Program-made: the position numbers and the translations under genes
Shown here: in pieces, positions 9,468 through 55,666 of the stretch
Numbering within the stretch: the first letter of the stretch is position 1
How the letters are laid out: every line of letters starts with the position of its first letter
Notes under the pieces: model-generated
What the model was told of the DNA's origin: nothing
Database searches by the model: none
The model's input: the letters and a program-made list of their open reading frames with translations, nothing else
Origin: a virus
Virus record (IMG/VR): IMGVR_UViG_3300034351_000048
Span: 1-64,000 of that record
DNA: 64,000 nucleotides
Direction: 5' to 3' (one strand)

Positions 9468-9591
9468 AGTGTGAGTTCCTCACCATATTAAAATATCATT
9501 CACAAAGTGAACGTAGGCACATATTCCAATATGGTGAGTTTAAATGAGTGCCCATTTAGCCTAAAACCACCAATATTTTTATATGAACCTA
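9468..9591 (-). ncRNA. structured 5' leader A (candidate RNA switch)
   Basis: Long hairpin, loop UGGGCAC complementary to downstream GUGCCUA, small hairpin CGUUCAC-UUU-GUGAAUG, and CUCACCAUAUU pairing with RBS-proximal AAUAUGGUGAG. Confidence 0.7.
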
Positions 9592-9597
9592 CTATAT

Positions 9598-9626
9598 AAT
9601 ATACAAAATTTATCCAACAAAGTCAA
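9598..9626 (-). promoter_or_regulatory. sigma70-type promoter of the antA leader
   Basis: TTGACT-N17-TATATT. Confidence 0.7.
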
Positions 9627-9708
9627 ATTTTAGAATTCAAACTCTATCAATACTGAAAAGATTTTATAAAAATTATAAAAAATTATTTAAATTTATTTTA
9701 CAAAAGTG

Positions 9709-9767
9709 TTGACTTTTTATAATTATATTAGTATATTATTATATGTAAGGCTTAAAAAAGTTTTACA
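9709..9767 (+). promoter_or_regulatory. strong early-type promoter with 5' hairpin
   Basis: TTGACT-N17-TATATT; 9694-9737 is a 44-bp perfect inverted copy of 16974-17017. Confidence 0.75.
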
Positions 9768-9797
9768 AAAAAATTAAAAAAAAGAGAGGTAAAGAAA

Positions 9798-10897
9798 ATG
9801 GAAACAAAAAAAATTACAAAAAAAGTAAGAAGATCAATCAAAGAAAAGATATTAAACACTATCGAACAACATGAAAAAAGGTCAAAAAGTTATTTCTGGA
9901 AACCCAACACCAACGCTGGTGGAAGAAGATCAATAGAAAATAAATTTAAAATTGACCATCCTTCTTATTCCTTTACACATCAAGGGATAAAATATGAAAT
10001 AATTACAAGTTTAGATGTATCATGTAAGAATTATTACTATTCTTTGTCTGTATATGTAGATGCAGAAAAGAAAAATATTAAAACATTAAAAAAACTTATA
10101 TGACAAAATAAGGTTTTCGGTAATCCTTAAAACCGAAAATAACCATAAATGGAGGAGATTTTTATGGAAACAAAAACAAATGCAGAGCAAATCTGTAAAA
10201 GTTTTGTAGCTATAGCTGCAAACTATTCAAGAGAGCTAAGAATTTTAGAAAAAGATTACAAAAGCTTCCTAAATTATATTCTAAAGGAAGCTGACAAGCT
10301 ACCTGAAAGAGTAAAAGCAAAAATTATAAGCAAAATAAAAAAATTGGAGGGAATAGATGAATGATTATTTTAATATCAGAAAAATCAATAAATTACAATG
10401 TAAAAACTGCCTATATTTCAATAAATACAAATGTGATAAAGGGATTAATATAAACAAACAAATATGTAAATTTAATATATTCTTTAAATCTGAAAAAATA
10501 AAAAAGGAGACAACTTATGTTAAATAAGGAAGTTAAAGAGAGAAAATACAATATACATGAGTATGAAAACTATACAGAAAAAGAAGCTATACTTGAAAAA
10601 ATACATATGTATAGGTTAGCAAAAACGCCTGAATGGGAAATAAGAGAAAGGCTTATAGATAAAATTTCTAAAGAGTATATATACTTATTACCAACACAAG
10701 AAAGACCCGTATTAGATAAAATTGAAAGGGTTGAATATAAAACATCAGACGATCCTTTTGATCACAGTTATGGATACTATTATAAAGCCTATTTTAAAAA
10801 TAGTGAAATTGTTGCGGAATTCGGTGAAAGTGATATTGATGATGTATTAAAGGATTATTCAGGTATAATAACTGAGAAAGACATTAGAAAAGCTTAG
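9798..10897 (+). CDS. four hypothetical genes (9798-10103, about 10164-10364, 10357-10527 Cys-rich 56 aa not in track, 10517-10897)
   Basis: Contiguous ORFs with RBSs downstream of the 9709 promoter. Confidence 0.6.
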
Positions 10898-11286
10898 ATT
10901 TAATTTGTTCAAGCAATTCTTTGTAATTACTTTCCAACTCTTCCAAAGAATCAAAATCATAATTTTCTTTATTATCCTCAATTATAACAGTTATATAAAA
11001 ATAAGGATTATGCTTACAATTTAAGATATCTCTCCAAGGTTTTTCATTAAAATCCATATAAATTTCCCATACCTTATTATCAGGTAGATTTATTATCTCA
11101 TTTTTAATTTTTATTATCATCTTTTCCTCCATTTTTATCTTTAAAATCGTCACAAATATGGCTTTCATCTACACGAATTTTATATTTTTTACATTCGTTA
11201 TATGAAAGTTTTTGTGAGTCTATTTCTTTACATTTAACACATTCTAAACAAGAGATTACTTCTCTAAAATTAGGTGCTTGTTTCAT
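10884..11286 (-). CDS. two small genes (10884 to about 11120 hypothetical; 11104-11286 Cys-rich)
   Basis: 11104..11286 carries APNFREVISCLEC...C...ICDDFKD. Confidence 0.6.
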
Positions 11287-11900
11287 AGATTTTCCTCTTT
11301 AATTATAATTTTATTTATAACTTTTTTCACATTAGCTGTCAATTCCCTTACTGTAAGTTGTTTTTCATTGTTATACGGTTTTACATAATGAACAGAATTA
11401 TTTTTCAATTTACCATAATAGTATTTTATGGCATATAGATAAGCTTTATTCAGTTTCTTTAAATCTAAAGAAGATATATTCCAAGATTCATGGTTTCTTT
11501 TCATTAAGTTTTCATAACAATATTCTGATGTATTAGTTATATATATTGTATCGAATTTATCATAATTGCATCTTTCTTCATAATCAATACATTCAAAATT
11601 GAATATTCTATCTTTATTATTAAAACAATTTTTAGTAAAATAAGCATAGTTACTTAATATATATCTATCCGCTATAACATGTTTTTTATTAAGTATTCTT
11701 AATAAGATATCATTATAATCATATCTATCATGTGCATAATTTTCATATGTGTAATATCCTTTATTGGCTTTATCTTTATCTAAAAACACTGGATATTTAA
11801 CAAAATCAAATTTGTTATCATCTAATTCTTTTTGTAAAATATTATATACGGATGATTTACCACATCCATTAATGCCTTCTAACACTATAAGTTTTTTCAA
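11283..11900 (-). CDS. tmk: thymidylate (dTMP) kinase-like protein
   Basis: P-loop LIVLEGINGCGKSS and VIADRYILSNYAY motifs. Confidence 0.8.
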   Translation of the reverse strand: MKKLIVLEGINGCGKSSVYNILQKELDDNKFDFVKYPVFLDKDKANKGYYTYENYAHDRYDYNDILLRILNKKHVIADRYILSNYAYFTKNCFNNKDRIFNFECIDYEERCNYDKFDTIYITNTSEYCYENLMKRNHESWNISSLDLKKLNKAYLYAIKYYYGKLKNNSVHYVKPYNNEKQLTVRELTANVKKVINKIIIKEENL

Positions 11901-11917
11901 ATAAGCCTCCTTATAAA

Positions 11918-11952
11918 TAAAAATAAGCAGTATATAATATCTATATACTGCT
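11918..11952 (-). terminator. intrinsic terminator after the beta clamp gene
   Basis: AGCAGTATATA/TATATACTGCT 11-bp stem followed by a T-rich tract. Confidence 0.6.
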
Positions 11953-11974
11953 CTATAGATTAAAAAATAAAAAA

Positions 11975-13084
11975 TTAAGTGTTTTGTGTTCTCATTAAAG
12001 CAATCAAATGTATATTTTGGAAAGTTTCTTTATTATACAATTCAACCGCAAGATTGTTACTAAACAACAATGTTATTTGATCTGATTCTATAGTAGAGAT
12101 ACCATTCATTAAAAAATCTACATTAATACTAAATTCGGCATTATTTAAAGATTTGTTTATTTTTATCGGGTCTGATTTGAATTCGCCTTTGTTATTTTTA
12201 GCATGTATTATAAGACTGTCTGAAATAGATATTCTAATAGGAGATATATTGTTTCCGTTTTTACTAAACACCTTAGCTTTTTTTAGTTCTTTTAGAATTT
12301 CTGCTTTATTTATTTGTATTTCATTTTCAAATTTTTCAGGTAAAATTCTTTGGTAGTTAATAAAATTACCTTCTATCAAATTACTTATTAGTTCTACTTC
12401 CTCTGATACTCTAAATTTTATAAAGTTTTCTAATATTACAATTTCTATAGTTTTAGAATTAAATTTTAATAGTTCAGGAACTATCCTTTTTGGAACTGTT
12501 ATTCTGAATTCTAAATCGCCGTATTTTTCATCAATGTTTATTTCATATTTGGAAAGAACCTTACCAGAAGTAGCTACAATTGTAATGTAATCAGTCTTTT
12601 TCATTTTCTCTAAACATATACCATTTAAATCAAACCTCATTTCATCTTTACATATAGCATCTTTAACAAATTTAATAGCATTAATCAGCTCATTTGTATC
12701 TATTTCAAACTTTAAAGTTTCTTCCAAATCGTTTAGGATGTAGATTTCATCTTTGTTTTCTTCAATTACCTGAACTACAAATTGATCTTTGTTGATATAC
12801 ATTAGATTTTTATTTACATTTAAATTAACAGTTGAATCTTTGTCTAAACTATTCAAGATATCAAGTAAAAGAGTAGGATCAATAGAGAATATCAAGTCTT
12901 TTTCTTCTTTTATTTCATCTAAGAATAGTAAAACATACTGTTCATTGTTCCTAAAGAATACTTTCAAGGTGTTTTTTTCAACAAAAAACAAAAACTTATG
13001 AAAATGACTTGTATTTTTATCTATTAAATTTCTATACTTACTTAATTTTTCATATAAAAATTCTACATTTGTAGTAAAATTCAT
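11975..13084 (-). CDS. dnaN: DNA polymerase III beta sliding clamp
   Basis: 369 aa; DEMRFDLNGICLE, VATSGKVL, SNLIEGNFINYQRILP, INVDFLMNGI, LIALMR match DnaN motifs. Confidence 0.85.
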   Translation of the reverse strand: MNFTTNVEFLYEKLSKYRNLIDKNTSHFHKFLFFVEKNTLKVFFRNNEQYVLLFLDEIKEEKDLIFSIDPTLLLDILNSLDKDSTVNLNVNKNLMYINKDQFVVQVIEENKDEIYILNDLEETLKFEIDTNELINAIKFVKDAICKDEMRFDLNGICLEKMKKTDYITIVATSGKVLSKYEINIDEKYGDLEFRITVPKRIVPELLKFNSKTIEIVILENFIKFRVSEEVELISNLIEGNFINYQRILPEKFENEIQINKAEILKELKKAKVFSKNGNNISPIRISISDSLIIHAKNNKGEFKSDPIKINKSLNNAEFSINVDFLMNGISTIESDQITLLFSNNLAVELYNKETFQNIHLIALMRTQNT

Positions 13085-13482
13085 TTATTTTCCTCCTCAA
13101 AATCATCGCATATTAAATATTCGTTTATTCCAACTCCATATTTCTCACACTTTTCATAATCCCCTGCCCCCATAATAGGTGTAAAATCATAATATTTACA
13201 TTTAGTACATGTAGTAGCCTCTCTCAAATTTGGGGGGCCTATTTTCTCTAAATATTTGATAGGAACAATCCAGCTGTTTTCTTTTAATTTAACTTCAGTG
13301 TATATTCTATCAGGTATAATATTACTTTCCACAGTATAAGTTGCGGTTACAATTTTATTACTTAGCTCATTTACAAAGCAAGCAAAAGTTTTTATATCTG
13401 TAGTATCGTCCCCGTTGCATAATTTAAACATTGTTTCTATATCTTTGAATTTTACCTTATCACCTTTTTTAAATTTACTCAT
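13081..13482 (-). CDS. hypothetical protein with KFKKGDKVK N-terminus and fused C-terminal Cys-rich module
   Basis: C-terminus PPNLREATTCTKC...INEYLICDDFEE closely resembles the 4039..4218 protein. Confidence 0.7.
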   Translation of the reverse strand: MSKFKKGDKVKFKDIETMFKLCNGDDTTDIKTFACFVNELSNKIVTATYTVESNIIPDRIYTEVKLKENSWIVPIKYLEKIGPPNLREATTCTKCKYYDFTPIMGAGDYEKCEKYGVGINEYLICDDFEEENK

Positions 13483-13485
13483 TTA

Positions 13486-14044
13486 TTACCTCCTTATTAT
13501 CTCTCTTAATTCCCTATTAGATTCTTTTAACATTATATTACGTTTTCTTCTATAAAAATCATTAAGAATAACTGTTCCTTTTGCTATATCTACATATCCA
13601 ATAAAATCTTTTATAGCCCATTCAAATGAATCTAAATAATCTCTGTTAAATTCAGTTTCAGCCACATCTTTTCCAAGTTGAAAGGCTGCGGTTTCTACTC
13701 TTAACAATTCATTTTTATATTGTTCTCTTCTCTGTTCATCTACTATATAAGTAATAAATATAAAGATAAACAGGCAAGATAGGGCAGTAAATAGAACATA
13801 GCGAAAAGTCCATATATCAAACTTTGCATATTTCATTTGATTATTCCTCCTCATAAATCCATATATCATATTTTGGGCATTCACAATAATCTGGAGTTAA
13901 ATTTATCACCAACTCATTATTTTTTTTAATGGTTATTCTTTTAACTCCAGGATTAAATTCAAAATTCTGATCTATAGTCATATTTAAATCACCAAATCTA
14001 TTTTTTATATGTTCTAATTCTTTTATTAAATCCGAGATTTTCAT
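13486..14044 (-). CDS. two hypothetical genes (13486 to about 13836 with a TM helix; 13841-14044)
   Basis: ORF track and RBSs. Confidence 0.6.
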
Positions 14045-14448
14045 TTTATTTCCTCCAAATTCGGTCTAATTAGGTCAAACATGATATCACTTGTTTCTAT
14101 CGATAACTCGCGGATATCTTTTAAGTATTCAAGTTTTTTTGACTTAAAATCAAACCCATTTTCTATTAACAATTTTACAATTTTAGACCTTCGGGTTCTT
14201 ATTGCTAAATGCATAGGCGATTGAGATTCTTTAAATAAATTGACGTCAGCACCATTTTCTATTAGAAGCTTACAAAGTGGATAATCTTTATTATTTATAG
14301 CATACATCAATGAGGTCCAACCCATTGCGTTTATCTTATTTATATCATTAATATCCTTTTCATCAAGTGTTAGAACGTTTTGATTTTTTATTCTATACAT
14401 TAAACTTGTATATTCAAACATATTAAAATATAAATTAATTTTATCCAT
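14041..14448 (-). CDS. ankyrin repeat protein
   Basis: GWTSLMYAINNKDYPLCKLLIENGADVN and SPMHLAIRTRRSKIVKLLIENG repeats. Confidence 0.9.
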   Translation of the reverse strand: MDKINLYFNMFEYTSLMYRIKNQNVLTLDEKDINDINKINAMGWTSLMYAINNKDYPLCKLLIENGADVNLFKESQSPMHLAIRTRRSKIVKLLIENGFDFKSKKLEYLKDIRELSIETSDIMFDLIRPNLEEIK

Positions 14449-14471
14449 TACCTATTTCTCCTTTATTTTTT

Positions 14472-14498
14472 GTAGTGATAATCTTTTGTTAGCACGAC
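14472..14498. repeat. 27-bp inverted repeat site 4 (minus strand GTCGTGCTAA-caaaaga-TTATCACTAC)
   Basis: Supplies the TAA stop of 14489..14932; followed by the AAGGAG of the ankyrin gene. Confidence 0.8.
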
Positions 14499-15176
14499 GA
14501 TTTATTTAAAAACACTTCTATAAAAGCTTCAGCCTTTATATTATCATCTATTTTCTTTTGTTTTCGATTATCCCTATACTTAACAGTTTCTTCATAGATT
14601 ATTGGTTCTAACTCTTCCATTATAGATATAAACTTTATCATATACTTTTCATAATCTGTTTCATGAATATTATTTAATATTATTTCTTCAATATCAAAAT
14701 CTTTGCTAAATATTTTTTGTCTTACTTTCACATCAATACTTTTCAGAAAACCTAATTTGAAACGTATAATTGTAACATATAAATCATCAATATAATGCGA
14801 ATTTATATATTTGAAACTATAATAGTTGTGTTTATATATGCTTTTTAGAATTATCATCAAACAAAATATATTTTTATATTTTATCTTTAGTTCATCTAAT
14901 ACCAATTTTTTATTCATGAATTTATTCCTCATTTAACCATTCGTCATAACACGTTGTATCTCCAATAATTGTATTAGATACATTTAAGTAAGCTTTTTTC
15001 AGTCTTCTTTTAGAATAATCTTTATATTTATTTTTAAACATTTCTAAAAGATCGTATTCCTCATCGTATAGAAAATTAAATATTTGGCATGTTCCTAATA
15101 ACACACCCCCATCCAACTCATCTTTTATTCTTTCATCAAGAAAATCATACATTCTATTTTCTATTTTTGTTTTCAT
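14489..15176 (-). CDS. two hypothetical genes (14489-14932, 14922-15176)
   Basis: ORF track. Confidence 0.6.
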
Positions 15177-15190
15177 TTATATCTCCTTTT

Positions 15191-15220
15191 GTCTTGATAA
15201 TACATGCTTTGTAGCACTAC
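15191..15220. repeat. variant repeat site 5 (minus strand GTAGTGCTAC-aaagcatgta-TTATCAAGAC)
   Basis: Spacer 3 nt longer; shares TGATAATACATGCTT with site 6; contains the TAG stop of 15217..15486. Confidence 0.6.
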
Positions 15221-15486
15221 AAATTCCTTATCCATATAGTATGATTTTTCCAAAAGACATAATCTTTATCATTATGTCCTACAAATCCAGTTTCACCATC
15301 ATCACCAAAAAACTCACCAGAACATTCAGGATGAATGAACATAATTTCTTTTAACCCTAATAATAAGGAATCTATATCAAATTCTCCTTTTATAACAAAT
15401 CCCTTATCTAAAAATAACATATAATCGATATCTTCTTCATGTAATAAATTTTTTGTTTTTTCCAAAATTTCATTTATATAATACAT
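15217..15486 (-). CDS. hypothetical protein flanked by repeat sites 5 and 6
   Basis: ORF with GAGGTG RBS. Confidence 0.65.
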   Translation of the reverse strand: MYYINEILEKTKNLLHEEDIDYMLFLDKGFVIKGEFDIDSLLLGLKEIMFIHPECSGEFFGDDGETGFVGHNDKDYVFWKNHTIWIRNL

Positions 15487-15512
15487 AGTTTCACCTCTAT
15501 TTTATTTTTTTT

Positions 15513-15539
15513 GTAGTGATAATACATGCTTATTATGAC
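15513..15539. repeat. 27-bp inverted repeat site 6 (minus strand GTCATAATAA-gcatgta-TTATCACTAC)
   Basis: 3 nt after the stop of 15543..15809; followed by an RBS. Confidence 0.8.
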
Positions 15540-15542
15540 GAT

Positions 15543-16931
15543 TTATTTATCAGCTATCACAGTAATAATTATATTATGTAAATCATTCCTTATATTGCCA
15601 TAAGAGTCTGATATAAGATGTTTTTTTAAATCATTTATATTATCATATTCTCCATAGACATCATATCGAAAATTTCCATTTATATCTTTATATTCATAAA
15701 TATTTGTTTTTGAATCGTATTGACAATTACATATTATATAATGTTCTTTACCTTCAATATCAAAATCTTGATAATAAAAATAAAGTTTTTTTGATTTTTT
15801 ATCATCCATAAAATCTCCTTAAATTTTAAGAATTTTTTTATCTTTTAAAGTATTATATATATTATAATATATATTCCAATACCAAAAAAAACAGGAGATA
15901 ATATCCAAAACCAAGACCAAGTTATTATATTAGCCACTCTAAGTAATATAAAACATAAAGTCAAAAGTGAAACAGTTGTGGTAAGAATATTAAATATGAT
16001 AATTATAATTTTTCTTGTTTTTTCACTATTCATAATTACCTCTTTATGCTTCCATATGGCTTAATAATACATCTTCTAATATTATTTCTGTATCAGAAGA
16101 ATAATATTCAAACGCTTTATTAACTAAATTTTTCATATCTATATTTTCCTTTATCTTAATATTAACAAAAAAATTTCTAATATCATAATAATTTCTCATT
16201 TTAAAGTAAATATTTTCTGTATCAAGTCGAATTTCCATTATGAAATTCTTTGTGTATATAGTGTTATTTATAATATCTTTAGATAAATCTTGATTAATCT
16301 CTATAAAATCTCCACTTCTTTTCAGTTCGTATAAATCTTTTATGAATTTTTGTGAAATATCATATCTTTCTTTTAATGTTTTCATTTTTCCTCCAATTTT
16401 TTAATATATTTGTCAAAATTTGTGTAAATTTTAGGGAGAATCTTAAAGTTTATTATATCATTTACATTTACTTCAAATTCCCCTAATATATGATCCTCAT
16501 AATCACTCAAGATAAGATTATTTAAAGCATTTTTTATTAATTTATTTCTTTTTTCTTTTAAGTTTGTAGATATATTTTCTTTGTTTTCATGTAAACTTTG
16601 AAATATTATTATCTCAAAATTCACCAACTCGGTTATTTTTGTTTCAATATTAGATACTATTTCACTAATCATAGATCAAATCCTCCATTGTTTCATAAAG
16701 TTTATTATTATTGTCAGTTGATAATGTAGGATTGAATTTCATATATTTATCTTTGAAGTTACTTAAGAAGTCGATAGAAAAAACCCATAATTTATTGTCA
16801 GAGAAAGATAAATATACTTTTTGTTGGTTTATAACGGTTACTTTGATATTATAATAACCTTTTTTGAACAAATAATTCATGTTGTCATGTATTAATTTTG
16901 TTTGTTCGTAAGATAATTCTTGATTTTCCAT
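15543..16931 (-). CDS. five small hypothetical genes (15543-15809, 15845-16033 membrane protein, 16044-16385, 16382-16672, 16665-16931)
   Basis: Contiguous ORFs with RBSs; SWFWILSP two-TM motif in 15845..16033. Confidence 0.6.
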
Positions 16932-16973
16932 TTTTTAATCTCCTATTTTTTATTTTCTAATCTATATGTTATA

Positions 16974-17002
16974 AATATACTAATATAATTATAAAAAGTC
17001 AA
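16974..17002 (-). promoter_or_regulatory. strong early-type promoter
   Basis: TTGACT-N17-TATATT, identical to the promoter at 9709. Confidence 0.75.
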
Positions 17003-17118
17003 CACTTTTGTAAAATATTTTTAAAATAAATTTGAATTTTTTATTTAATGTTTTGTGTGTTTGCTTATTAGAAAAGTAAAATGGGTGGAATTAGAAAAAT
17101 TAAAAAAGAAATTTTATG

Positions 17119-17868
17119 TTATTTTTTGTATTCTTTGGCTACTTTCTTTCGTATATATTCAAACCCTTTTTTAGTAACTAAAGTTACGGGTTTATTTCCA
17201 ACTTCTTTAATCATTTTCTCTTTAACTTTGAAATATCCAAGTTCAATATAAGGTTGTTTAGGAACATTTGAACCATTCAGCATAAACAATATCTCTTCTT
17301 CTCTTAAGAACTTGAATAATCTTACAACTCCAATATCAATGCCTTTACTACTTAACAACTTTGCAACTTCATTCATAGTCATTAAATTTTCATCATTCAT
17401 AAAATCGTCGTAAGAATTTGCTTTTGGTAAAAGAACTTGTTTCTCAGCTTCTAATTTTTCATTTTCAAGTGCTAATCTTCCAGCTTCTAAGAGGGCTTCG
17501 GCATAGGATTGTGGAATGTTATATTGTTTTTCTTGTATTTCTTTTAATTTAAAATAACTTTTAACAAGTTTATTATACACATCCCATGCTTCGGATGTAC
17601 CAATACTTTTAGCGTGTTTCAAAGCTCCTGATTCTGTCCATAAGTATATAGGTCTTTGAGAATTCTCACTATTCGAAAATTTCGAATATTCTTTATTGGA
17701 CTTAGAAATAAGTATATAATCGATGTTTTCAGTATATTGATTTTTATTATTATTGAAATTTTGTTGGATTTTTATTGGTTTAACACCATAAAATTCTGCT
17801 AATTCTTTAGTTGTTAAGACTATTTTTTCTTTATATTGTTTTTGATTTAATTTTGTTAGGTCTGTCAT
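17119..17868 (-). CDS. ORF6N + ANT/KilAC antirepressor-like protein
   Basis: VLTTKELAEFYG...NFNNNK...LWTESGALKHAK; IPQSYAEALL; PKANSYD...LFKFLRE...PKQPYIELGYF...VTKKGFEYI. Confidence 0.85.
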   Translation of the reverse strand: MTDLTKLNQKQYKEKIVLTTKELAEFYGVKPIKIQQNFNNNKNQYTENIDYILISKSNKEYSKFSNSENSQRPIYLWTESGALKHAKSIGTSEAWDVYNKLVKSYFKLKEIQEKQYNIPQSYAEALLEAGRLALENEKLEAEKQVLLPKANSYDDFMNDENLMTMNEVAKLLSSKGIDIGVVRLFKFLREEEILFMLNGSNVPKQPYIELGYFKVKEKMIKEVGNKPVTLVTKKGFEYIRKKVAKEYKK

Positions 17869-17993
17869 AATTAGACTCCATCAACTATAAAAAACGCTCA
17901 TTCACCAAAGGTAAACGTAACCACAGCATTTAAATATAGTTAATGGATCAAAGAGGGTGGTTATTTCTCTTAAATCCATTAAAATAACTATAC
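17869..17993 (-). ncRNA. structured 5' leader B (candidate RNA switch)
   Basis: Long hairpin, loop UAACCAC complementary to GUGGUUA, small hairpin CGUUUACC-UUU-GGUGAAUG, and UCCAUUAACUAUA pairing with RBS-proximal UAUAGUUGAUGGA. Confidence 0.7.
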
Positions 17994-17999
17994 AAATAA

Positions 18000-18027
18000 A
18001 ATATAACATATTTATTTTAAAAGTCAA
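18000..18027 (-). promoter_or_regulatory. sigma70-type promoter of leader B
   Basis: TTGACT-N16-TATATT with a TG extended -10. Confidence 0.6.
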
Positions 18028-18317
18028 ATATTTAAGTTTAATTTTTTGAACCTCTCATCATTTATAACTTTATTTAGAGCTATTTTAAATAGCCTTGTAA
18101 CATTCGATTTGTTACATTTTAAGACCTTACTTATTCGAACATTCGAGTAATTTTCAAATACACGTAATCCGAATGCTAATTCTTGTTTTTCACTTAACTT
18201 TTCATCAATAATATCCTGAATTGTATGCTTATTTGTTTTATCTTTGAAAAGTTGTCTTATTATATCAATTTTTTTTAATGTGCTTAAATTTTCCATGTTT
18301 TCTAACGTATTTTCCAT
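18024..18317 (-). CDS. sigma70 region-4-like HTH protein
   Basis: LSEKQELAFGLRVFENYSNVRISKVLKCNKSNVTRLFKIALNKV pattern. Confidence 0.65.
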   Translation of the reverse strand: MENTLENMENLSTLKKIDIIRQLFKDKTNKHTIQDIIDEKLSEKQELAFGLRVFENYSNVRISKVLKCNKSNVTRLFKIALNKVINDERFKKLNLNI

Positions 18318-18336
18318 TAAAATATATCTCCTTTTA

Positions 18337-19565: not shown

Positions 19566-19697
19566 TCAAACCTCCAAAATTCATGAATATACTATAAAAA
19601 TAATAAAAAATTTACAAAAATACAAAAAATTTTACAAAAAAATTTGTTTTAATTTAAAAGTGTTATTATTTTAATATATATAGTTAAAGGAATTTTA

Positions 19698-21401: not shown

Positions 21402-21700
21402 TGAAATACAAATATTTTAGATATATAGAATCAGGTGTTATACAACCCCTTGATGATTTAGATAATATTAAAGAATTAAAGAAAGATAGGAATATAGAAT
21501 TATTATCCACACACCAAATTCAAGAAGAAATTTATGAAGTTATAAAAGAAACAAGGTTATTGTATAAAATTAGGAATAAAAAGAAATTGCTTGAAACTTG
21601 TATTGAACGTGTTAATTTTTATGTAGGATTAGATTTTGATGAATTTGATAAAGAATTTTCATGTTTTTACAACTATATCGTATCTAAAATATACACGTAA
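21401..21700 (+). CDS. hypothetical protein
   Basis: TAATG coupled to TerL. Confidence 0.6.
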   Translation: MKYKYFRYIESGVIQPLDDLDNIKELKKDRNIELLSTHQIQEEIYEVIKETRLLYKIRNKKKLLETCIERVNFYVGLDFDEFDKEFSCFYNYIVSKIYT

Positions 21701-21765
21701 TTATTTTAAATTTTAAATTTATTATAATTTTAATTATATTTATAAACAAAATAAAGGATGGAAAT

Positions 21766-22005: not shown

Positions 22006-22183
22006 AATTAAATGCTGTCATATCTGTAAATATTTTAAAAAGTGTAAAATTGTAAAACAAATACAGAGAAAAGAATCTAATTTAAAGAAAAAAACTGATT
22101 TTGGTAAATTGTTTTGTATAGAATTTGAAAAAATAAAAAGGATGGGAAGAGACTATAATGGAAAAGACAGAACAAACGAATAA
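21998..22183 (+). CDS. small Cys-rich protein
   Basis: CCHICKYFKKC...FCIEFE. Confidence 0.5.
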   Translation: MLEIKCCHICKYFKKCKIVKQIQRKESNLKKKTDFGKLFCIEFEKIKRMGRDYNGKDRTNE

Positions 22184-44201: not shown

Positions 44202-44212
44202 GGGGAAATTAG

Positions 44213-45586: not shown

Positions 45587-45600
45587 AACGGAGGATATGA

Positions 45601-48243: not shown

Positions 48244-48890
48244 TGAATACAAATGGAGGTAAAATAATGAAAAACTTTTTATTTAAACTATATTTGGTTT
48301 TTTCTTATATATATACATATATGATAATTCTATTTACAACAATAATATTTAATTTATATTATTTTATTAAATTTAAAAAAATGGGTGTATATAATAAGAA
48401 AAAAAATGATTTGTTATATATGATAAATCACGTTAAAAATATACAAGATATGTTTGATTTACAAAAAACTCTTATACCAAATTATTATAATGATCCCTTA
48501 TTTGGGGCATTAAATTGGTTTTCAACAACATTAATAACATATCTTAGAACTTTTTATTTAAATCTTGAAAAACATTCCAAAAATTGTTATGAATACGCAA
48601 GAATTATAAAAGATGTTATAGATAAAAGTGATTTAGGAGAAACTTATTTTAAAACAGAATTAGTAAGTTTACTTTCTTATAAACCTTTTATAAAATACAA
48701 TCATGTTATTACACTTGCGTATAGAAAAAGCTCTACAAATAAAACTGTTGTGGATGTTTTTTCACCTTACGATTTAATTGAAACTGTTTTAGAAGAAGAT
48801 TTAAAGAGTAAATTATATAAAATAATGGAAAAATATTTTGAAAAAGACAATGTAAAATATATTCCATATTATTTAAGAATATTGTTTTAG
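48243..48890 (+). CDS. membrane-anchored protein, possible cysteine-peptidase fold
   Basis: N-terminal TM; NCYEYA and NHVITL motifs; likely start at about 48267. Confidence 0.45.
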   Translation: MNTNGGKIMKNFLFKLYLVFSYIYTYMIILFTTIIFNLYYFIKFKKMGVYNKKKNDLLYMINHVKNIQDMFDLQKTLIPNYYNDPLFGALNWFSTTLITYLRTFYLNLEKHSKNCYEYARIIKDVIDKSDLGETYFKTELVSLLSYKPFIKYNHVITLAYRKSSTNKTVVDVFSPYDLIETVLEEDLKSKLYKIMEKYFEKDNVKYIPYYLRILF

Positions 48891-48893
48891 AAT

Positions 48894-49187
48894 TTGGAGG
48901 AAACAATGGATAAAGAAAATAAAAAAGTAAAAATATTTAATTTATTACTAGTACTTATAGGCATTTTATGTACAAGTTTAGCGATACTTGTTATATCCAC
49001 AGGTATATTCGGGTTAGACTTGGAAGCCAATACCTTAATAGAATTTGGGGATGAGATTAATAATAAAGACGAAAGCTTGAAACAAGATAGAACCTTTGAA
49101 AATGTAGAAGGGGATGATTATTTATATAAATTTGAGATAGATTCTAATAAGAACTCTCAATTCTTAAAAAATTACAACAAAAAATAA
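48894..49187 (+). CDS. single-TM membrane protein
   Basis: Hydrophobic N-terminal helix; likely start at 48906. Confidence 0.55.
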   Translation: MEETMDKENKKVKIFNLLLVLIGILCTSLAILVISTGIFGLDLEANTLIEFGDEINNKDESLKQDRTFENVEGDDYLYKFEIDSNKNSQFLKNYNKK

Positions 49188-49205
49188 TAAAAAGTTGGAG
49201 GAAAT

Positions 49206-50327
49206 ATGAAGAAGATAGATAAAAAATCTTTGATAACATCTATAATTTCTATTGTTTTACTTATCCTATCTTTAGTATTTAGTAATAAAGTAAAATTGAA
49301 AATGGAATTATCTGTTCTACATACAGAATCATCTATAGTTATAGAAAAAGATAATAAATTATATAAACCAATAGATGGGCTGAATGAAAAAGATGGAATA
49401 AATGACGTATTAGAAATAGAATTAGCATTAAACAATACAAAATTATATTATCCAAATGTTGTTAATAATAAAATAGAAGAAGATGATATAAAATTAATTG
49501 AAGAATTTAACGATTTTTATTTTATAGATAAAGAAGTAGATACAGAGGATATTTTAAAAGATGTAAATTTTTTGAATAGATTGTATGAATTAACCACAAA
49601 AATTATAAAAAGAAATGACACCAAATATTTGAATCAAAGGTTAAGTAGTGATCCTAAAATAGCTTATAATAGTTGTGTTCCTTATTCAGCAACAATTGGG
49701 TTGCAAACACTTGGTATTGATATAAATCCAGATGATTTAACACATTATTTCAAAGGGGAATTAAAAGAATATGCTTTACAATACCATAGCATTGTAGATT
49801 ATGCAGTTAGAAATTATGGAAACTGGATTGAAACTTATGTAAGAGATAGAAAACTATACCAAATATTTGGTGTTTTAAAATATGGCATAAATATCCACCC
49901 TAAAGTGATGAAATCAAAATATTATTTAAAATTTGGTTATAAGAATATAAACTGGATAGAAAACTATATAAACAAAAATAACACAGGGTTAGTTATAAGC
50001 ACATTTTTACCTTATTTAGTAGATAACAAATGGGAACCTGAGAATAAAACTAAATTTAAGGGGGGGCATGCTGTTTATTTAAGAGATATATTATCTTTAA
50101 ATATAAAGGAAAATGATTATACAAGTAAAGAAATTCTCGGTGTTATTTTACAAGATCCTTTCGGTAATCCTAATACTAATTATGATTTATTAGATGGACA
50201 TGGAGTATTATTAAGAATAGACAAGTTTCAAAAATGTGTAAAAACAGACTTAACCGATAATAGGAAATTCTATAGTAGTGATGATGAAATTCGGGTTTTA
50301 TATTGGGATTTAAAAACAAATTATTAA
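49206..50327 (+). CDS. peptidase C39-like protein with signal anchor (candidate endolysin)
   Basis: YLNQR...NSCVPYS...GGHAVYL...ILQDPFG catalytic Q/C/H/D spacing. Confidence 0.7.
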   Translation: MKKIDKKSLITSIISIVLLILSLVFSNKVKLKMELSVLHTESSIVIEKDNKLYKPIDGLNEKDGINDVLEIELALNNTKLYYPNVVNNKIEEDDIKLIEEFNDFYFIDKEVDTEDILKDVNFLNRLYELTTKIIKRNDTKYLNQRLSSDPKIAYNSCVPYSATIGLQTLGIDINPDDLTHYFKGELKEYALQYHSIVDYAVRNYGNWIETYVRDRKLYQIFGVLKYGINIHPKVMKSKYYLKFGYKNINWIENYINKNNTGLVISTFLPYLVDNKWEPENKTKFKGGHAVYLRDILSLNIKENDYTSKEILGVILQDPFGNPNTNYDLLDGHGVLLRIDKFQKCVKTDLTDNRKFYSSDDEIRVLYWDLKTNY

Positions 50328-50337
50328 GGAGACAGTT

Positions 50338-51018
50338 ATGAGAAAGTTTATTATATATATATTAATTATATTTGCATTCATATTTTCCTCCATTTATGGA
50401 TGTGATAAGGGGTATAACCCTGATTTAGGCATACATGTAGATAAGAAATTAAGTTTTGAGTTAAACTCTATAGATTCTCAAAATCTTAAAAATAATATCT
50501 ATAGCCTCACAAAAGATTACTACAAAAAAGGTTATACTTCTTATCTATTTTTGGATAGGTATTATAATATACCAAAATTAAATGATGATAGTGAAAAAAA
50601 TGATTTGAAAGATATCTTGTTGGAATTTGACAATAATTTTAAATATAGAGATGGAACGTTTGATTGTGATAAGTTTTCACGAATATTTCAAGCTTTCTGC
50701 ATTCTGAGTAATAATGATGATATTATTAAGAATGAAAAGATGCTTTCAATTGGTATTTTAAATTTCTATTATACCAATTTACATAATGAAAAATCAGGGC
50801 ATAGTATTAATATTCTTGCTTACTTGAATGATAAAGATGAAATAGAAATAAGATTATTAGAACCTCAATTATTATCAACAAAATTTCTTAGATCATATGT
50901 AGACACATTTGAAGAAGATCAAAAGAAAAAAGATATAATTTTCCAATATGCTATTACTACAATAGATGATTATTTTGAAGATTTTAAAGATGTATATATA
51001 GGATTAATGTTATTTTGA
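50338..51018 (+). CDS. lipoprotein with papain/transglutaminase-like (MOA agglutinin C-terminal-like) domain
   Basis: Lipobox-like IYG-C; FDCDKFS...GHSINI...LEPQ. Confidence 0.6.
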   Translation: MRKFIIYILIIFAFIFSSIYGCDKGYNPDLGIHVDKKLSFELNSIDSQNLKNNIYSLTKDYYKKGYTSYLFLDRYYNIPKLNDDSEKNDLKDILLEFDNNFKYRDGTFDCDKFSRIFQAFCILSNNDDIIKNEKMLSIGILNFYYTNLHNEKSGHSINILAYLNDKDEIEIRLLEPQLLSTKFLRSYVDTFEEDQKKKDIIFQYAITTIDDYFEDFKDVYIGLMLF

Positions 51019-51659
51019 AAAAATTTAAAGAAATCCTAAAAAAAGTTTGGGAATTTATAAAAAAACATCTCGATAAAATAATAATTATTGGGGTTATATT
51101 AATTTTAATATTAAATATTTTTAATTTAAATAAAACTAACCCCGATATATCTAAACTTGAAAAAACGATTGAAGAACAAAGAAAAAAATTAGATAAAAAA
51201 GATAGCGAATTACAAGTAAAAATCCAAGAACTTAAAAATAAGAGCTCAGAATCAGAACTTTTTAGGCAAAAAGGTATACAATTACTAAACGAGTTAAAAA
51301 GTGCTAAAAATGATAGTAATTTTAACGCCTATTTGAATTATTTTACATTTGCTTCTGAGTTTTCTATTTTTAACGAGAATTTTGCTAAAGAAAATGAACA
51401 AACTTATATAATGCTTACTGGATATTATAACGAATTAGTTGTATATGATAATCAACTAAAAGAATATAAAAAAGCTGTAGACACACAAATATATAAATTA
51501 TCTGTAATACCTTATGTAATGGGTTGGAAATCAGATAAGTTTTATATAGGTGGTGGAATAGATTTAAGAGTTCCTATTAACTATAAATTTGCTATTATTG
51601 GAGGGGTTGGATATTATAATCAACCTTTTGTTAAAATTGGAATTGATATAAAATTTTAA
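51015..51659 (+). CDS. spanin-like protein (TM + coiled coil + C-terminal beta strands)
   Basis: N-terminal TM, heptad region, ends FVKIGIDIKF. Confidence 0.45.
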   Translation: MKKFKEILKKVWEFIKKHLDKIIIIGVILILILNIFNLNKTNPDISKLEKTIEEQRKKLDKKDSELQVKIQELKNKSSESELFRQKGIQLLNELKSAKNDSNFNAYLNYFTFASEFSIFNENFAKENEQTYIMLTGYYNELVVYDNQLKEYKKAVDTQIYKLSVIPYVMGWKSDKFYIGGGIDLRVPINYKFAIIGGVGYYNQPFVKIGIDIKF

Positions 51660-51664
51660 TTTAA

Positions 51665-51994
51665 TTATATTCCTATACTTGTATCTGATTTTGTATTACT
51701 ATTATCTACGATATTATGAGTTACTTTACACTTATCATCAAATATATCACTCCAAGTATTATTTGGATATTCACAATCTTGAAATTTACAATCCTTAATA
51801 ATACAATTATCAAAAGAAGCTTTCTTAAAGTCGCAATTTATGAATCTCATATGTTTGAATGTAATGTTTTCAAAAACAGTTGTAATAGTTTCGTTTTCGA
51901 TTGTTTCATTTTCAAAAGTTGTATTATTCCCGATAAAATAAAGTTCACTTTTCCCATCTATTTTATCGAACTCTAAAAATTTTTTAAAAGTCAT
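51665..51994 (-). CDS. pentapeptide-repeat-like protein
   Basis: FENIT FKHMR FINCD FKKAS FDNCI IKDCK FQDCE periodicity. Confidence 0.7.
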   Translation of the reverse strand: MTFKKFLEFDKIDGKSELYFIGNNTTFENETIENETITTVFENITFKHMRFINCDFKKASFDNCIIKDCKFQDCEYPNNTWSDIFDDKCKVTHNIVDNSNTKSDTSIGI

Positions 51995-52368
51995 TATTTA
52001 TTCTCCTTATTTGAAATCTTTTCCATAAAATTTTCTAATACACTTTTACATATAAATAACATATCGTTTTGTGTATAAAAATCTTCGTAAAATTTGATTT
52101 TTATTTTTCTTATTTCGACAAATTTAGATAAATTCTCATCTTCATAAATATTTTCTATAATTTCAAAATGTGAATCATTTATATCTATAAATCCATGACT
52201 GAATATGATTTCATATGATTTCTCATTTTCATAAAAATATTCTAAATATAAATATTGAGCTTTATCAGAAAAAGACATATCTCTTTCTATCTTAATATTT
52301 GGGTTATATTTATATATTATATTTCTGAATTCATTTTTTGTCTTATGTATAAAATCTAAATTATCCAT
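51994..52368 (-). CDS. hypothetical protein
   Basis: ORF with GGAG RBS. Confidence 0.6.
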   Translation of the reverse strand: MDNLDFIHKTKNEFRNIIYKYNPNIKIERDMSFSDKAQYLYLEYFYENEKSYEIIFSHGFIDINDSHFEIIENIYEDENLSKFVEIRKIKIKFYEDFYTQNDMLFICKSVLENFMEKISNKENK

Positions 52369-53138
52369 TATCGATTCTCCTTACCGAATAATTCAGAAGC
52401 TAAATCATACAAATCTTTTAATTTACCATTTTGATCTATAATATCTAATTTTGTTAATTTACCTGTTTCTTTTTGTTTTCTTTCTCTTGCGTATACATCA
52501 AAATGATATCTATACTTGAACTGTAAATATAACTTTTTCCAAGTATCATGCATACTCAAATATTTAGTTTGAGCGTATGTTCTAACAATAAGATTAATTT
52601 TTGATCTTGTAGTTAATTCATTTGCATTGTCATGAGAAAGGGGTAATTCATTAAAAGTATTCTCGTTTTCTTCCTGAACTTGTTTTATAGAATTTACATC
52701 TTCTTGTAATTTTAGCATGTTTTCTTCATGTTCAACTAATTTATTTACACAAGCTTGTAAAGCATATATATTAGACAAATCAGGCCTTTCTATTTGTTTT
52801 TCTTGTATTTCTTTTAATTTAAAGTAACTTTTAACAAGTTTATTATAAACATCCCATGCCTCAGGAGTCCCAATACTTTTAGCGTGTTTTAAGGCTCCTG
52901 ATTCTGTCCATAGATATATAGGGCGTTTTCCATTTTTGTTATCTTGAAATTCACGATAACTATTATCACTAAATGATATAATCAAATAATCAATATTTTC
53001 AATATATTTCTCATTGTTTCTATTAAAATTGTAACTTATAATTTTTGTATCAACACCATAAAATTCTGCTAATTCTTTAGTTGTTAATACAATAGTGTCA
53101 TTATATTGTTTTTGATTTAATTTTGAAATGTCGGTCAT
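52368..53138 (-). CDS. ORF6N-domain antirepressor-like protein
   Basis: N-half highly similar to 17119..17868 with a different C-terminus; the start at 53138 matches the paralogue and an AGGAG RBS. Confidence 0.8.
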   Translation of the reverse strand: MTDISKLNQKQYNDTIVLTTKELAEFYGVDTKIISYNFNRNNEKYIENIDYLIISFSDNSYREFQDNKNGKRPIYLWTESGALKHAKSIGTPEAWDVYNKLVKSYFKLKEIQEKQIERPDLSNIYALQACVNKLVEHEENMLKLQEDVNSIKQVQEENENTFNELPLSHDNANELTTRSKINLIVRTYAQTKYLSMHDTWKKLYLQFKYRYHFDVYARERKQKETGKLTKLDIIDQNGKLKDLYDLASELFGKENR

Positions 53139-53252
53139 GTTAAGACTCCTATTAAATAAAATATCATTCATTATAAAATGAAAGGGGATAAAAATTTCAT
53201 TTAATAGGATTAGAGAATTATCCCGGTTTCCTAATCCTATTAAAAATCTATG
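53139..53252 (-). ncRNA. structured 5' leader C (candidate RNA switch)
   Basis: 14-bp stem UUUAAUAGGAUUAG/CUAAUCCUAUUAAA, loop GGGAUAA complementary to UUAUCCC, small hairpin UUCAUU/AAUGAA, and UCCUAUUAAAU pairing with AUUUAAUAGGA. Confidence 0.7.
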
Positions 53253-53360
53253 TAAAATAAACCCCGAAGTATATAGATCGTAAATGAGGTGGTATCGGGG
53301 TTTATACTAAAAAATATTAAAGGAGATCAAATGAAAAAATTAATTTTCAATATTAGAAAA

Positions 53361-53444
53361 TGCGAAGTAAAGGAATCGAACCTTCAAGCTCTTACGAGCG
53401 GCAGATTTTAAGTCTGTTGCGTTTACCTGTTTCGCCAACCTCGC
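53361..53444 (-). tRNA. tRNA-Leu (anticodon TAA)
   Basis: Acceptor GCGAGGT/ACTTCGC+A, anticodon loop CTTAAAA, long variable arm GCTC-GTAA-GAGC, GGTTCGATTCC; CCA not encoded. Confidence 0.9.
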
Positions 53445-53503
53445 AAAATTACCACTTAACGTGGTAAAAACAATTTGCCAAAAAGTATTTTTATCATAAT
53501 TTA

Positions 53504-53586
53504 AATATACTAAATTAGATTAAAACAGTCAAATTTATTTTAAATAAAATTTAAAAGTTGACTTTTTATAATCATTTTAGTATATT
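53504..53586. promoter_or_regulatory. divergent sigma70-type promoter pair
   Basis: TTGACT-N17-TATATT on minus (53504-53532) and on plus (53558-53586). Confidence 0.7.
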
Positions 53587-53605
53587 TAAATTGTGGAGGT
53601 GAAAT

Positions 53606-54370
53606 ATGATAGATAAAGATAAATTAAGATTATCACCAACAAAAATTTTATTATACCAACAATGCCCTTATAAATTTAAAAAACAGGTTATAGATAAAGA
53701 TTATAAACCTTCAATATGGTTAGATTTAGGATCAGTTACACATGGTATTATTGAAGAACTCACAAAAAATCGTATGGAAAAAGATACAAGTTTTATAAAT
53801 TTGTTTATAGATGATTATTTAGATAAAACAGAATATAATAATACAGAAAAACAAGAAATTAAAAAAACATCCACAAATATGGTTGATACTTGTTATAATT
53901 CTATAGATGATTTTATAAGGAAATTGGAAGATTATTATGTAGAAATGTGGTTTGAAACTAATTTAAATGGATTTAAGTTTGTAGGTAAATCAGATTTAAT
54001 AGGTAAATCCAAAAACGGTAATTATTATATTGTAGATTACAAAACAAGTAAACCAAATAAAAAAACAGGTTTACACTATGAAACGGATTTTGACCAATGG
54101 TTAATGTATGCTCTATTGTTTAGAATAGATAAAAGATTAGAAGGATTGAACCCTATTTGTAGGGCTTGGTATTTAAGAACTAATACCATACATGAAAAAA
54201 AGTTCACAAATGATGATATAGATAAAATATTTATAAAAGCTCATTGTATATTGGATATGATAGACAATGACATATATAATTACAATAAAAGCGGTGAGCG
54301 AAAAGGATTTCACCCAAAAAGAAACAAATTTTGTAATTGGTGTGATTATAATAGGATATGCAGGAGGTAA
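53606..54370 (+). CDS. PD-(D/E)XK (RecB/Cas4-like) exonuclease
   Basis: LSPT..CPYK, GSVTHGIIE, GKSDLI, IVDYKTS, QWLMYA, CNWCDYNRIC (four Cys, likely Fe-S). Confidence 0.85.
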   Translation: MIDKDKLRLSPTKILLYQQCPYKFKKQVIDKDYKPSIWLDLGSVTHGIIEELTKNRMEKDTSFINLFIDDYLDKTEYNNTEKQEIKKTSTNMVDTCYNSIDDFIRKLEDYYVEMWFETNLNGFKFVGKSDLIGKSKNGNYYIVDYKTSKPNKKTGLHYETDFDQWLMYALLFRIDKRLEGLNPICRAWYLRTNTIHEKKFTNDDIDKIFIKAHCILDMIDNDIYNYNKSGERKGFHPKRNKFCNWCDYNRICRR

Positions 54371-55268
54371 TGTGGCAAATATTCTTAAAGAATTAAATGG
54401 TGTAAATTATCATACAATTGGAAAGTATCTTGGAAGTAATAAAGAACATATATTCTACCTTGTATATTTGGATGAGGAACAAAAATTACAAAAAAGAATT
54501 GAAGAAAACAAAGATAAAATATATTCTGATATAATACGAATACCTATACAAAGCTTTATAGATAATGATGTGTTTAAAAAGTGGAGTTCTAAAGATATTG
54601 TAGTTGATTATTTCAGTGATAAAACAAAAATAGAAAAAAAATTAGTAAATGATTTTATAGATGGAAAAGAAAATTCTTATGAAATAGCATTAGAAATAAA
54701 TAGGTATATAAAATTCTTTGATTGTGAGTTAAAATCTATACATAGAAATAAATCGTTAAAAGAACAAAAAAAACAAAAGATAAGAGTTATAATGAACCGA
54801 TTGTTTGATTTATTCTATGATTACAATATATCTTTAAAATCTTTTATTATGATAATGGAATCAAGCAAAGGTAAACTCTATAATGCTGTAAATAATTATA
54901 GAATTAGTAGAAATATACAACAACATTTAAACCTATTTTTACATGATTTTCCTACTAAATATGAAGAAAAGAAGAGATTATTTTTAGAATATATTGAACT
55001 ATACAAAGATGTTAAAAACATGCTATGTGTTTATAGAGACAAAATAAATAAAGAGAGATTTAAGCTAAACTATCAATACTACAAAATATTTTTAGATACT
55101 CCTATAGTAAAGGTTCAAAAGCTTATGGATATTTATACATACGTGAGAAATAGAGGTTTAATGTCTGTTGATGAGCCTTTAAGATTAAATTTTAATGAAA
55201 ATATAGAGAAGTTGAAAGTCTTAAATCAAATTGCGGATATAAAAGAATTTAAAGATTTGGCTTTGTAA
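54371..55268 (+). CDS. hypothetical protein
   Basis: Track ORF 54267..55268; AGGAGG favours a GTG start near 54371. Confidence 0.65.
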
Positions 55269-55544
55269 AAATATTTTATTTAAATTTGACTTTTTTAAAT
55301 TTATTGTTATATTTTAATATATATTATTTATCATAGATTAATTAATTGCTTCCCATAACCTCTTTTAAAAAGAATTATGAGGAGTTGGAATTCAAAATCA
55401 ATATCTTCAATAGAAGAAATAATTTGCTTTACATGCCTTTTATATGAGCTATGGTCGGAACTCATATGATAAAAATCTAAACACCTCTTAATTTTTCAAA
55501 TAAAATTACTTGACTTTTAAAATAGTTTTATTATTATTTATAAG

Positions 55545-55666
55545 TATAAACTAAAAATTAACCAGATTAAGATATATACCGACTTTCTTAATCTTGTTAG
55601 TTTATATGTTGTCGGTACATCCACCTTTGGTGGGTGAACATATTTTCTAACAAGGTGATAAAAACC
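55545..55666 (+). ncRNA. structured 5' leader D (candidate RNA switch)
   Basis: Long hairpin, loop UACCGAC (55577-55583) complementary to GUCGGUA (55611-55617), hairpin CAUCCACC-UUU-GGUGGGUG, AUCUUGUUAG pairing with CUAACAAGGU; promoter TTGACT at 55510. Confidence 0.7.

Follow-up and report, generated by a model that had tools for sequence, protein, structure and literature searches.

What controls the antirepressor-like genes of the virus recorded in IMG/VR as IMGVR_UViG_3300034351_000048, and what do the leaders that precede several of them do? The window analysed here is the first 64 kb (64,000 nucleotides) of this 80,224-bp record, which has direct terminal repeats and is rated 100% complete; the stretch past the window end is called L101 (L101:9504-9646 corresponds to genome positions 73,504-73,646). 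A preliminary description of the window placed four covarying RNA leaders before such genes. Their coordinates and strands were given correctly and all four are real, but the genome holds five, the last lying outside the window. The leaders, L1 to L5, precede AntA, ORF6N-ANT, ORF6N, ORF6N-DUF559 and Rha genes, respectively, so the association with antirepressor-like genes, now one AntA, three ORF6N and one Rha, stands. On balance we favour reading these leaders, ca. 125 nt in length, as cis-acting two-state translational switches in the 5' untranslated regions of the five genes. What is given below on helices, covariation, competing pairings and energies comes from computation.

A common fold in five leaders

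All copies have a common fold (Table 1), which opens with a hairpin, P1, formed by strands X1 and X'. Seven bases of the P1 loop are complementary to a 7-mer lying 3' of the hairpin, which abuts a second hairpin, P2, with no spacer. A further helix, P3, forms between an A-rich stretch preceding this 3' 7-mer and a U-rich one that follows P2, and a strand over the Shine-Dalgarno sequence (SD), X2, competes with X1 for X'. P1 comprises 14 pairs, the loop-bulge helix 7, P2 8, and P3 7. Since P3 encloses both the 3' 7-mer and P2, the 7-mer is a 7-nt bulge of a longer P3/P2 hairpin. The order of hairpin, 7-mer pairing, P2, and X2 had been recognised in the preliminary description, while P3, and with it the bulged position of the 7-mer, had been missed. 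The four 7-mer pairs quoted there are exact, UGGGCAC/GUGCCUA including one G-U pair; the statement that the leaders share little primary sequence is incorrect, as they are clearly homologous, with a mean column identity of 68%.

The structure was annotated onto a MAFFT alignment of L1-L4. MAFFT itself is blind to structure, and it placed the loop 7-mers in one column block and the 3' 7-mers in another. In L1-L4, 93.6% of the cells are paired, compared with 39.7-47.1% when the partners are slid by one to three columns, and 20 of the 36 pairs change on both sides; none of 500 shuffles reaches any of the five measures. With L5 included the paired fraction is 93.7% (38.6-47.1% for slid partners), and 24 of 36 pairs change on both sides, a value reached by 0/500 shuffles. 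In the five copies the loop-bulge helix has 100% of its cells paired and all 7/7 pairs changing on both sides, the respective values being 91% and 9/14 for P1, 97% and 5/8 for P2, and 88% and 3/7 for P3. Single leaders folded against their own shuffles give z values of -3.6, -4.0, -1.9, and -3.6 for L1 to L4. The helices contain 14 G-U against 3 A-C appositions, an excess that assigns the structure to RNA of the gene's own (sense) strand. The earlier claim of a selected RNA structure with compensatory changes is thereby upheld. A reading at the DNA level, as an operator or a recombination site, is rejected on account of this strand-specific excess together with changes that preserve pairing and not sequence.

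The fifth copy provides an out-of-sample test of the fold. A covariance model built from L1-L4 with the pseudoknot left out (R1) finds the four leaders alone in the window, the next match scoring 22 bits. When L5 is aligned to this model, both of its 7-mers fall in the same columns as the others and pair at 7/7 positions; the chance of seven standard pairs at fixed columns in A+U-rich sequence is ca. 0.002 by our own composition-based estimate. The X2 strand of L5 also pairs with its own X'. The loop 7-mer is flanked by 4 and 2 nt in every copy, with no insertions or deletions, and the C90-G128 pair, U127 and the next A are invariant in all five, few other unpaired positions being conserved. 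A 19-nt insert takes the place of the apical half of P2 in L5, and a YUNR U-turn motif is present in the loop of L1 only.

Table 1. Elements of the five leaders, with model scores and folding energies (kcal/mol). Window positions are used for L1-L4; L101 is the stretch past the window end; the two strands of a helix are separated by a slash.
Feature	L1	L2	L3	L4	L5
Leader	9468-9591	17869-17993	53139-53252	55545-55666	L101:9504-9646
Strand	minus	minus	minus	plus	
Gene that follows	AntA, 8667-9467	ORF6N-ANT, 17119-17868	ORF6N, 52368-53138	ORF6N-DUF559, 55667-56350	Rha family
Pfam domains	AntA	ORF6N + ANT	ORF6N	ORF6N + DUF559	
R1 score (bits)	109.5	125.2	106.9	133.5	26.7 (filters off)
P1 core	9559-9572 / 9532-9545	17968-17981 / 17941-17954	53229-53242 / 53202-53215	55559-55572 / 55586-55599	
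Loop 7-mer	UGGGCAC, 9548-9554	UAACCAC, 17957-17963	GGGAUAA, 53218-53224	UACCGAC, 55577-55583	AGAUCGU
P3	9521-9526 / 9490-9496	17925-17931 / 17892-17898	53192-53197 / 53158-53164	55604-55610 / 55637-55643	
Bulge 7-mer	GUGCCUA, 9514-9520	GUGGUUA, 17918-17924	UUAUCCC, 53185-53191	GUCGGUA, 55611-55617	ACGAUCU
P2	9497-9513	17899-17917	53165-53184	55618-55636	
RUG at P2 3' end	9497-9499	17899-17901	53165-53167	55634-55636	L101:9610-9612
X2 over SD	9479-9489	17877-17889 (13 bp with X')	53147-53156	55647-55656	UAACAGGA
Promoter-like site	9626-9598, TTGACT-N17-TATATT	18027-18000, TTGACT-N16-TATATT with TG		55510-55537, TTGACT-N16-TATTAT	
tRNA gene or tRNA-like element upstream			tRNA-Leu(UAA), 53360-53445, minus; promoter-like site 53532-53504		tRNA-like element, L101:9403-9524, plus
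P1 fold	-31.8	-35.2	-22.0	-33.5	-29.6
Closed fold (X1 blocked)	-30.5	-30.3	-22.8	-28.3	-23.1
Unconstrained minimum free energy (MFE)	-36.8, holds X':X2	-35.2, holds X':X2	-24.6, hybrid	-33.5, P1 fold	-29.6, P1 fold

Competing pairings over the ribosome-binding site

The preliminary description proposed that X' pairs either upstream or over the ribosome-binding site (RBS), and the two pairings are indeed mutually exclusive and close in energy. Cognate X':X2/SD duplexes have energies of -11.7 to -17.2 kcal/mol, compared with -2.5 to -10.6 kcal/mol for non-cognate ones; for bare loop-to-bulge duplexes, with the pseudoknot penalty not deducted, the ranges are -8.7 to -11.3 and +0.5 to -6.8 kcal/mol. 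When the upstream 108 nt were scored against the SD region for 117 crude open reading frames (ORFs) of the genome (median -8.5 kcal/mol), the five leaders ranked 2, 4, 5, 15, and 18. The strong score of gene 53606 in this comparison is an artefact, the complementary stretch lying upstream of that gene's promoter.

In constrained folding the P1 fold and the closed fold are ca. 0-10 kcal/mol apart. Keeping the P1 loop region unpaired as well gives closed folds of -27.3 kcal/mol for L1, -19.8 for L3, and -20.2 for L5, and leaves those of L4 and L2 unchanged. P1 is the MFE structure of every transcript prefix ending after X', and once X2 is added, the hairpin comprising X':X2, P3, the bulge, and P2 becomes the MFE structure in four of the five leaders; on a direct path out of the P1 fold into the closed one, the barriers are estimated at 8-19 kcal/mol. 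Both alternatives, X1:X' and X':X2(SD), are present and supported by covariation or by cognate pairing, as is expected of a two-state switch that sequesters the SD. With two secondary structures so close in energy, the 7-bp contact is placed to decide the balance between them. By analogy, the layout, with an upstream partner, an anti-SD strand, the SD, and, in between, a sensor-like domain containing the covarying tertiary contact, would follow the logic of a translational expression platform.

We infer from these pairings that the fold controls translation, that the loop and the bulge make their 7-bp contact in cis, and that this contact favours the open state. In the nascent RNA, X1 would pair with X' to give P1, and the seven loop bases would then pair with the strand abutting P2 in a pseudoknot-type contact. 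P1 and this contact together would constitute the open fold, in which X2 and the SD are free and the gene is translatable. In the closed fold X' would exchange X1 for X2, producing one long hairpin (X':X2, P3, the 7-nt bulge, and P2) with the RBS buried, and the 7-bp contact would decide which of the two wins. Each leader might in this way set, and perhaps time, the output of a potentially harmful regulator per transcript, being open while nascent, with a possible burst of synthesis, and relaxing towards the closed state later; in its simplest form such a switch would need no external signal, and a factor masking a 7-mer would push the respective gene to 'off'.

Several points weigh against such a switch. 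By geometric reasoning, a full-length P1 together with a formed P3 would put the loop and the bulge at different heights, and the contact in cis would need either P3 open, as an H-type pseudoknot with a third loop of 8-16 nt, or a frayed base of P1. The 7-mers are the fastest-diverging paired element, with a mean identity of 31% against 54-65% for the stems; between L3 and L5, the two P1 strands are kept at 13/14 positions each and the loop flanks are shared too, yet the 7-mers agree at 1/7 and 1/7. Such divergence is not predicted by drift in a purely cis-acting element; it is what one would expect if selection acted against cross-talk or in favour of new specificities. P2 with its U tract scored as terminator-like in L1, L2, and L4 (shuffles 0.0-0.6) and not in L3 and L5; a weak local hairpin of the SD region is possible in the 'open' fold of L1 and L2; and all the covariation comes from five paralogues of one phage, since no homologue was found outside its genome.

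Alternative readings of the 7-mers and of P2

The geometry, the divergence of the 7-mers, and the terminator-like P2 with its U tract are the reasons why both kissing in trans and transcription attenuation are kept as live rivals. Seven bases is the classical size of a kissing loop, and the loop and the bulge could be address labels in the style of the P1/P7 c4 or the Inc/CopA RNAs; a short or processed leader RNA carrying the P1 hairpin would bind either the bulge or the loop in other transcripts, and only in those of its own gene, resulting in gene-specific feedback or in exclusion of related phages. We regard this as unlikely, though it would suit the rapid divergence of the 7-mers and the exchange of 7-mers on a shared P1 in L3 and L5, as well as the cognate specificity of the loop-to-bulge duplexes; P2 and the U tract might end a short leader RNA in three of the five copies, and the contact in cis looks strained with P1 at full length. 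The preliminary description allowed for action in trans from a short leader transcript. The genome encodes no separate RNA with extended complementarity: at no other locus do matches of at least 10 nt to the complement of a loop or bulge exceed chance. Nor is an antisense promoter consistently seen: in a consensus scan promoter-like matches on the antisense strand are weak in L2 and L3 and absent from L1, L4, and L5, and their totals do not exceed those of shuffles. Moreover, a loop on the same molecule should outcompete a partner in trans, and the bulge lies away from the RBS.

It is rather doubtful that the 7-mers are true address codes by which leaders recognise their own kind in trans, through short transcripts or dimers, so as to form five independent RNA-only circuits. 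Differing 7-mers, which had been taken for orthogonal codes, are expected anyway from covariation among old paralogues; the idea of locus-specific codes retains one hint in its favour, the rate at which the 7-mers diverge, as seen in L3 and L5. If true, it would amount to RNA addressing comparable to that of plasmid incompatibility determinants, multiplexed in one genome, with the code under diversifying selection.

Terminator-like scores in three of the five leaders mean that control could be transcriptional. P3, P2, and the U tract would then be a leaky intrinsic terminator whose stem carries a 7-nt bulge. P3 would be blocked, and read-through permitted, when this bulge pairs with the P1 loop, and X':X2 would add a second, translational layer. 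P3, with its A-rich 5' strand and U-rich 3' strand, resembles A-tract terminators in this respect. Attenuation is improbable nonetheless: L5 has no U run (AAUAUUGUCU), the stem of L3 is too poor in G-C pairs to be flagged by the terminator scan, the U run begins 3-6 nt past P2, and the conserved covarying feature, X2 over the SD, is translational.

A still slimmer case can be made for a sensor of a protein or a small ligand, in which a phage or host factor would stabilise one fold by binding the junction of the loop-bulge helix and P2, with its conserved C at the P2 base and UGA after it, in the way of a riboswitch or of Com on the Mu mom mRNA. The invariant lengths of the loop 7-mer flanks and the invariant bases at the P2 base agree with it, and the single functional class of the five genes would suit a shared regulator. 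Conserved unpaired bases are, however, very few and make up no core resembling a ligand pocket, the apical half of P2 is replaced in L5, and no Rfam riboswitch matches.

Coupling to a leader peptide, as in the rep genes of IncI/IncB plasmids, would have a mini-ORF starting at the RUG translated into X2, opening the closed hairpin. The RUG occupies the same column in all five leaders, and the frames that start from it encode MIF-stop just before X2 in L1, and MSVFYS-stop and MNIV-stop, both ending inside X2, in L2 and L5; that of L3 has 10 codons and an AUGA overlap with the main start, and in L4 the GUG (GTG at 55634) is in the main frame. This reading is highly improbable, as there is no usable SD (GGUGA is either missing or stands at zero spacing from the RUG), the RUG itself takes part in the pairs at the P2 base, its conservation is accounted for by the P2/P3 pairs, and short frames end fast by chance in A+T-rich sequence.

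Known systems and genomic surroundings

The closest known systems are the immI region of P1/P7, with the c4 antisense RNA and its a1/b1, a'/b', and a2/b2 boxes (PMC8198154, citing Citron & Schuster 1990), and the repZ/repA genes of IncI1, IncB/O, and IncL/M plasmids, with pseudoknot-activated translation and an Inc antisense RNA (PMC8053102, citing Asano & Mizobuchi 1998). As in c4, an RNA element upstream in the same transcript would control an antirepressor gene, short complementary boxes vary between relatives with their complementarity kept, and a middle element (here X') can pair with either of two boxes, one upstream (here X1) and one at the RBS (here X2). The differences lie in the variable 7-mer, which here is off the RBS and pairs 5' of P2, ca. 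35-45 nt before the SD, in the RBS partner X', which is a strand of a hairpin stem and not the loops of a processed 77-nt RNA as in c4, and in the presence of five copies per genome before different genes with no sign of lysogeny functions.

The likeness to the repZ system consists in a hairpin loop that pairs with a short downstream stretch, in a pseudoknot linked to translation behind a buried RBS, and in the loop being also the specificity determinant; complementarity of the loop to a downstream stretch is kept here by covariation at all positions of the helix. In the phage the partner of the loop stands well before the SD instead of adjoining it, the consensus scan showed no consistent antisense promoter, the existence of a leader peptide is doubtful, and the genes are phage regulators as opposed to plasmid replication genes. 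The leaders belong to neither system, given that no match is obtained with the models, that the variable pairing lies off the RBS, and that the promoter scan pointed to no antisense gene.

The int-alpA RNAs and the rha leader of P22 are likewise folded, pseudoknot-capable leaders able to hide the RBS of accessory phage genes of the same functional class (nuclease, antirepressor, Rha, KilA-N). In the P22 leader, as its pairings were read here, the partner of the SD is a CCUC further down, inside the coding sequence, a layout different from that of L1-L5; the resemblance of the phage leaders to both is one of function and context, not shown homology. Three-part platforms of an anti-anti-SD, an anti-SD, and an SD are known from the adenine riboswitch add, a translational 'on' switch, and from the lambda cIII mRNA. 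What the leaders would share with them is a single strand (X') that can go either to a partner upstream or to the SD region, the upstream choice being stabilised by a tertiary contact, but they have no recognisable aptamer, and the tertiary contact is a loop-bulge helix of 7 bp that is free to vary. A pseudoknot leader switch that sequesters the SD is of a known kind; what is new is the family of sequence and structure, which is absent from Rfam. Its fold is compact and well defined, the compensatory changes that speak for a tertiary 7-bp contact are unusually clean, and the phage genes that it marks form a single, poorly understood functional class (AntA, ORF6N, Rha). If the free-to-vary 7-mer pair works as proposed, it could be a template for programmable, mutually non-interfering translational switches.

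The family so far comprises five paralogues in one phage. The preliminary description held that the leaders are not of the c4/CI type, and they match neither these nor any other Rfam family: C4 (RF01695), c4-a1b1 (RF03163), and int-alpA (RF02996) were compared, and in the five leader regions none of them, nor any riboswitch or small ribozyme, matched at E values up to 10, tRNA being the sole match at the gathering score in the window. The search with a covariance model in phage and metagenome sets that had been proposed returned no homologue outside the genome in the sampled loci and genomes; these searches are samples, and the element may exist in relatives outside them. Scans of IMG/VR for close relatives with the ORF6N-ANT, AntA, terminase, and Rha proteins found none. 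R1 gave no homologue in 116 loci of ORF6N relatives (80 from IMG/VR, 24 from bacterial genomes, and 12 from metagenomes), two weak matches there (loci L132 and L126) being read as a terminator plus RBS and as a promoter region, and found nothing in the Fusobacterium phages Fnu1 and FNU3. Fourteen loci retrieved with a DNA pattern based on P2 contained no match, and in 76 loci retrieved with a pattern for the P1 stem the sole match (L149) is a promoter-proximal palindromic hairpin with no P2 or 7-mer pairing. The model R2 found nothing in P22, its rha leader included; in 151 Fusobacteriota genomes it gave two weak matches, both plain hairpins, and in 4 further genomes and 150 scored Clostridia genomes nothing (305 bacterial genomes in all). 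A blastn comparison of L2 with GenBank phages yielded short chance matches only.

The phage is uncultured and may come from a mangrove metagenome, which is the label of one of the two studies containing the same DNA. Its proteins are distant from all those available for comparison. Its best protein matches among GenBank phages are those of Fusobacterium phages, at 32.5%, the structural neighbours of its DnaB protein lean towards Bacillota, and the nearest relative of its ORF6N-ANT protein outside its own genome (P0002) is 45% identical. The complete genome encodes no tyrosine or serine recombinase, neither Phage_integrase (PF00589) nor Resolvase (PF00239) having a match in it; the phage is probably virulent, and the lack of these enzymes makes classical immunity, and with it the immunity-like control suggested earlier, doubtful. 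With at least eight genes of antirepressor families (two AntA, four ORF6N, one Bro-N-ANT, and one Rha) in a recombinase-free phage, the name 'antirepressor' is probably a misnomer here.

Promoter-like sites precede L1, L2, and L4 and predict transcription starts just 5' of X1. The promoter scan recognised no promoter of L3's own; ca. 107 nt upstream of it, on the same strand, lies the tRNA-Leu(UAA) gene, whose transcript probably carries L3. The form TTGACT-N16/17-TATATT, with TATTAT at the site of L4, is common to these sites and to further intergenic ones at 53504-53532 (that of the tRNA-Leu gene), 53558-53586 and 55286-55313, which suggests one promoter class for early or accessory genes of the phage. 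L5 is directly abutted by a tRNA-like element (genome 73,403-73,524) scoring 38.6 bits with the Rfam tRNA model (gathering score 29) and not called by ARAGORN. It has a 7-bp acceptor stem, a D-arm, a T-arm, and an anticodon arm with a 58-nt insert, and tRNA-type processing at this element might set the 5' end of L5; it gave no convincing alignment with the tRNA-Leu. Between the tRNA-Leu gene and L3 (53253-53300, minus strand) there is a G+C-rich stem of 8 bp, AAACCCCG...CGGGGUUU, which closes a loop of 29 nt and is followed by a U-rich tail. The loop holds ACGAUCU, the bulge 7-mer of L5, probably by chance, as this 7-mer occurs seven times in the genome when both strands are counted.

Not all members of the gene class have a leader. 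The ORF6N-ANT gene at 56343 has none and lies inside the operon headed by the L4 gene, a co-oriented run of ORF6N-ANT, a helix-turn-helix protein, and DnaB. The second AntA gene (59365-60198) likewise has none; in its 103-nt upstream spacer, 59300-59364 (plus strand) contains nothing but an RBS and a hairpin resembling a terminator (UACCCUCC...GGAGGGGUA, then UUUU). Before the Bro-N-ANT gene (L101:293) neither R1 nor R2 has a match, and the region L101:205-305 (genome ca. 64,205-64,305, plus strand) forms a long hairpin burying the SD, different from L1-L5, in which UACCUUAAUAUU pairs with AAUAUUGAGGUA over the SD (MFE -28.8 kcal/mol, z = -4.45); it ranks 6 among the 117 ORFs for upstream-to-SD complementarity.

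Finally, the leaders and their genes have a mosaic structure, as found by comparing 52368-53262 with 17119-18002 and L101:9504-10416. P1 of L3 is like that of L5, before the Rha gene, while the gene behind L3, from the SD through its N-terminal 120 residues, is like its counterpart behind L2 (71% identical residues, the alignment covering 48% of the query), a pattern that suggests recombination within or beside the leaders.

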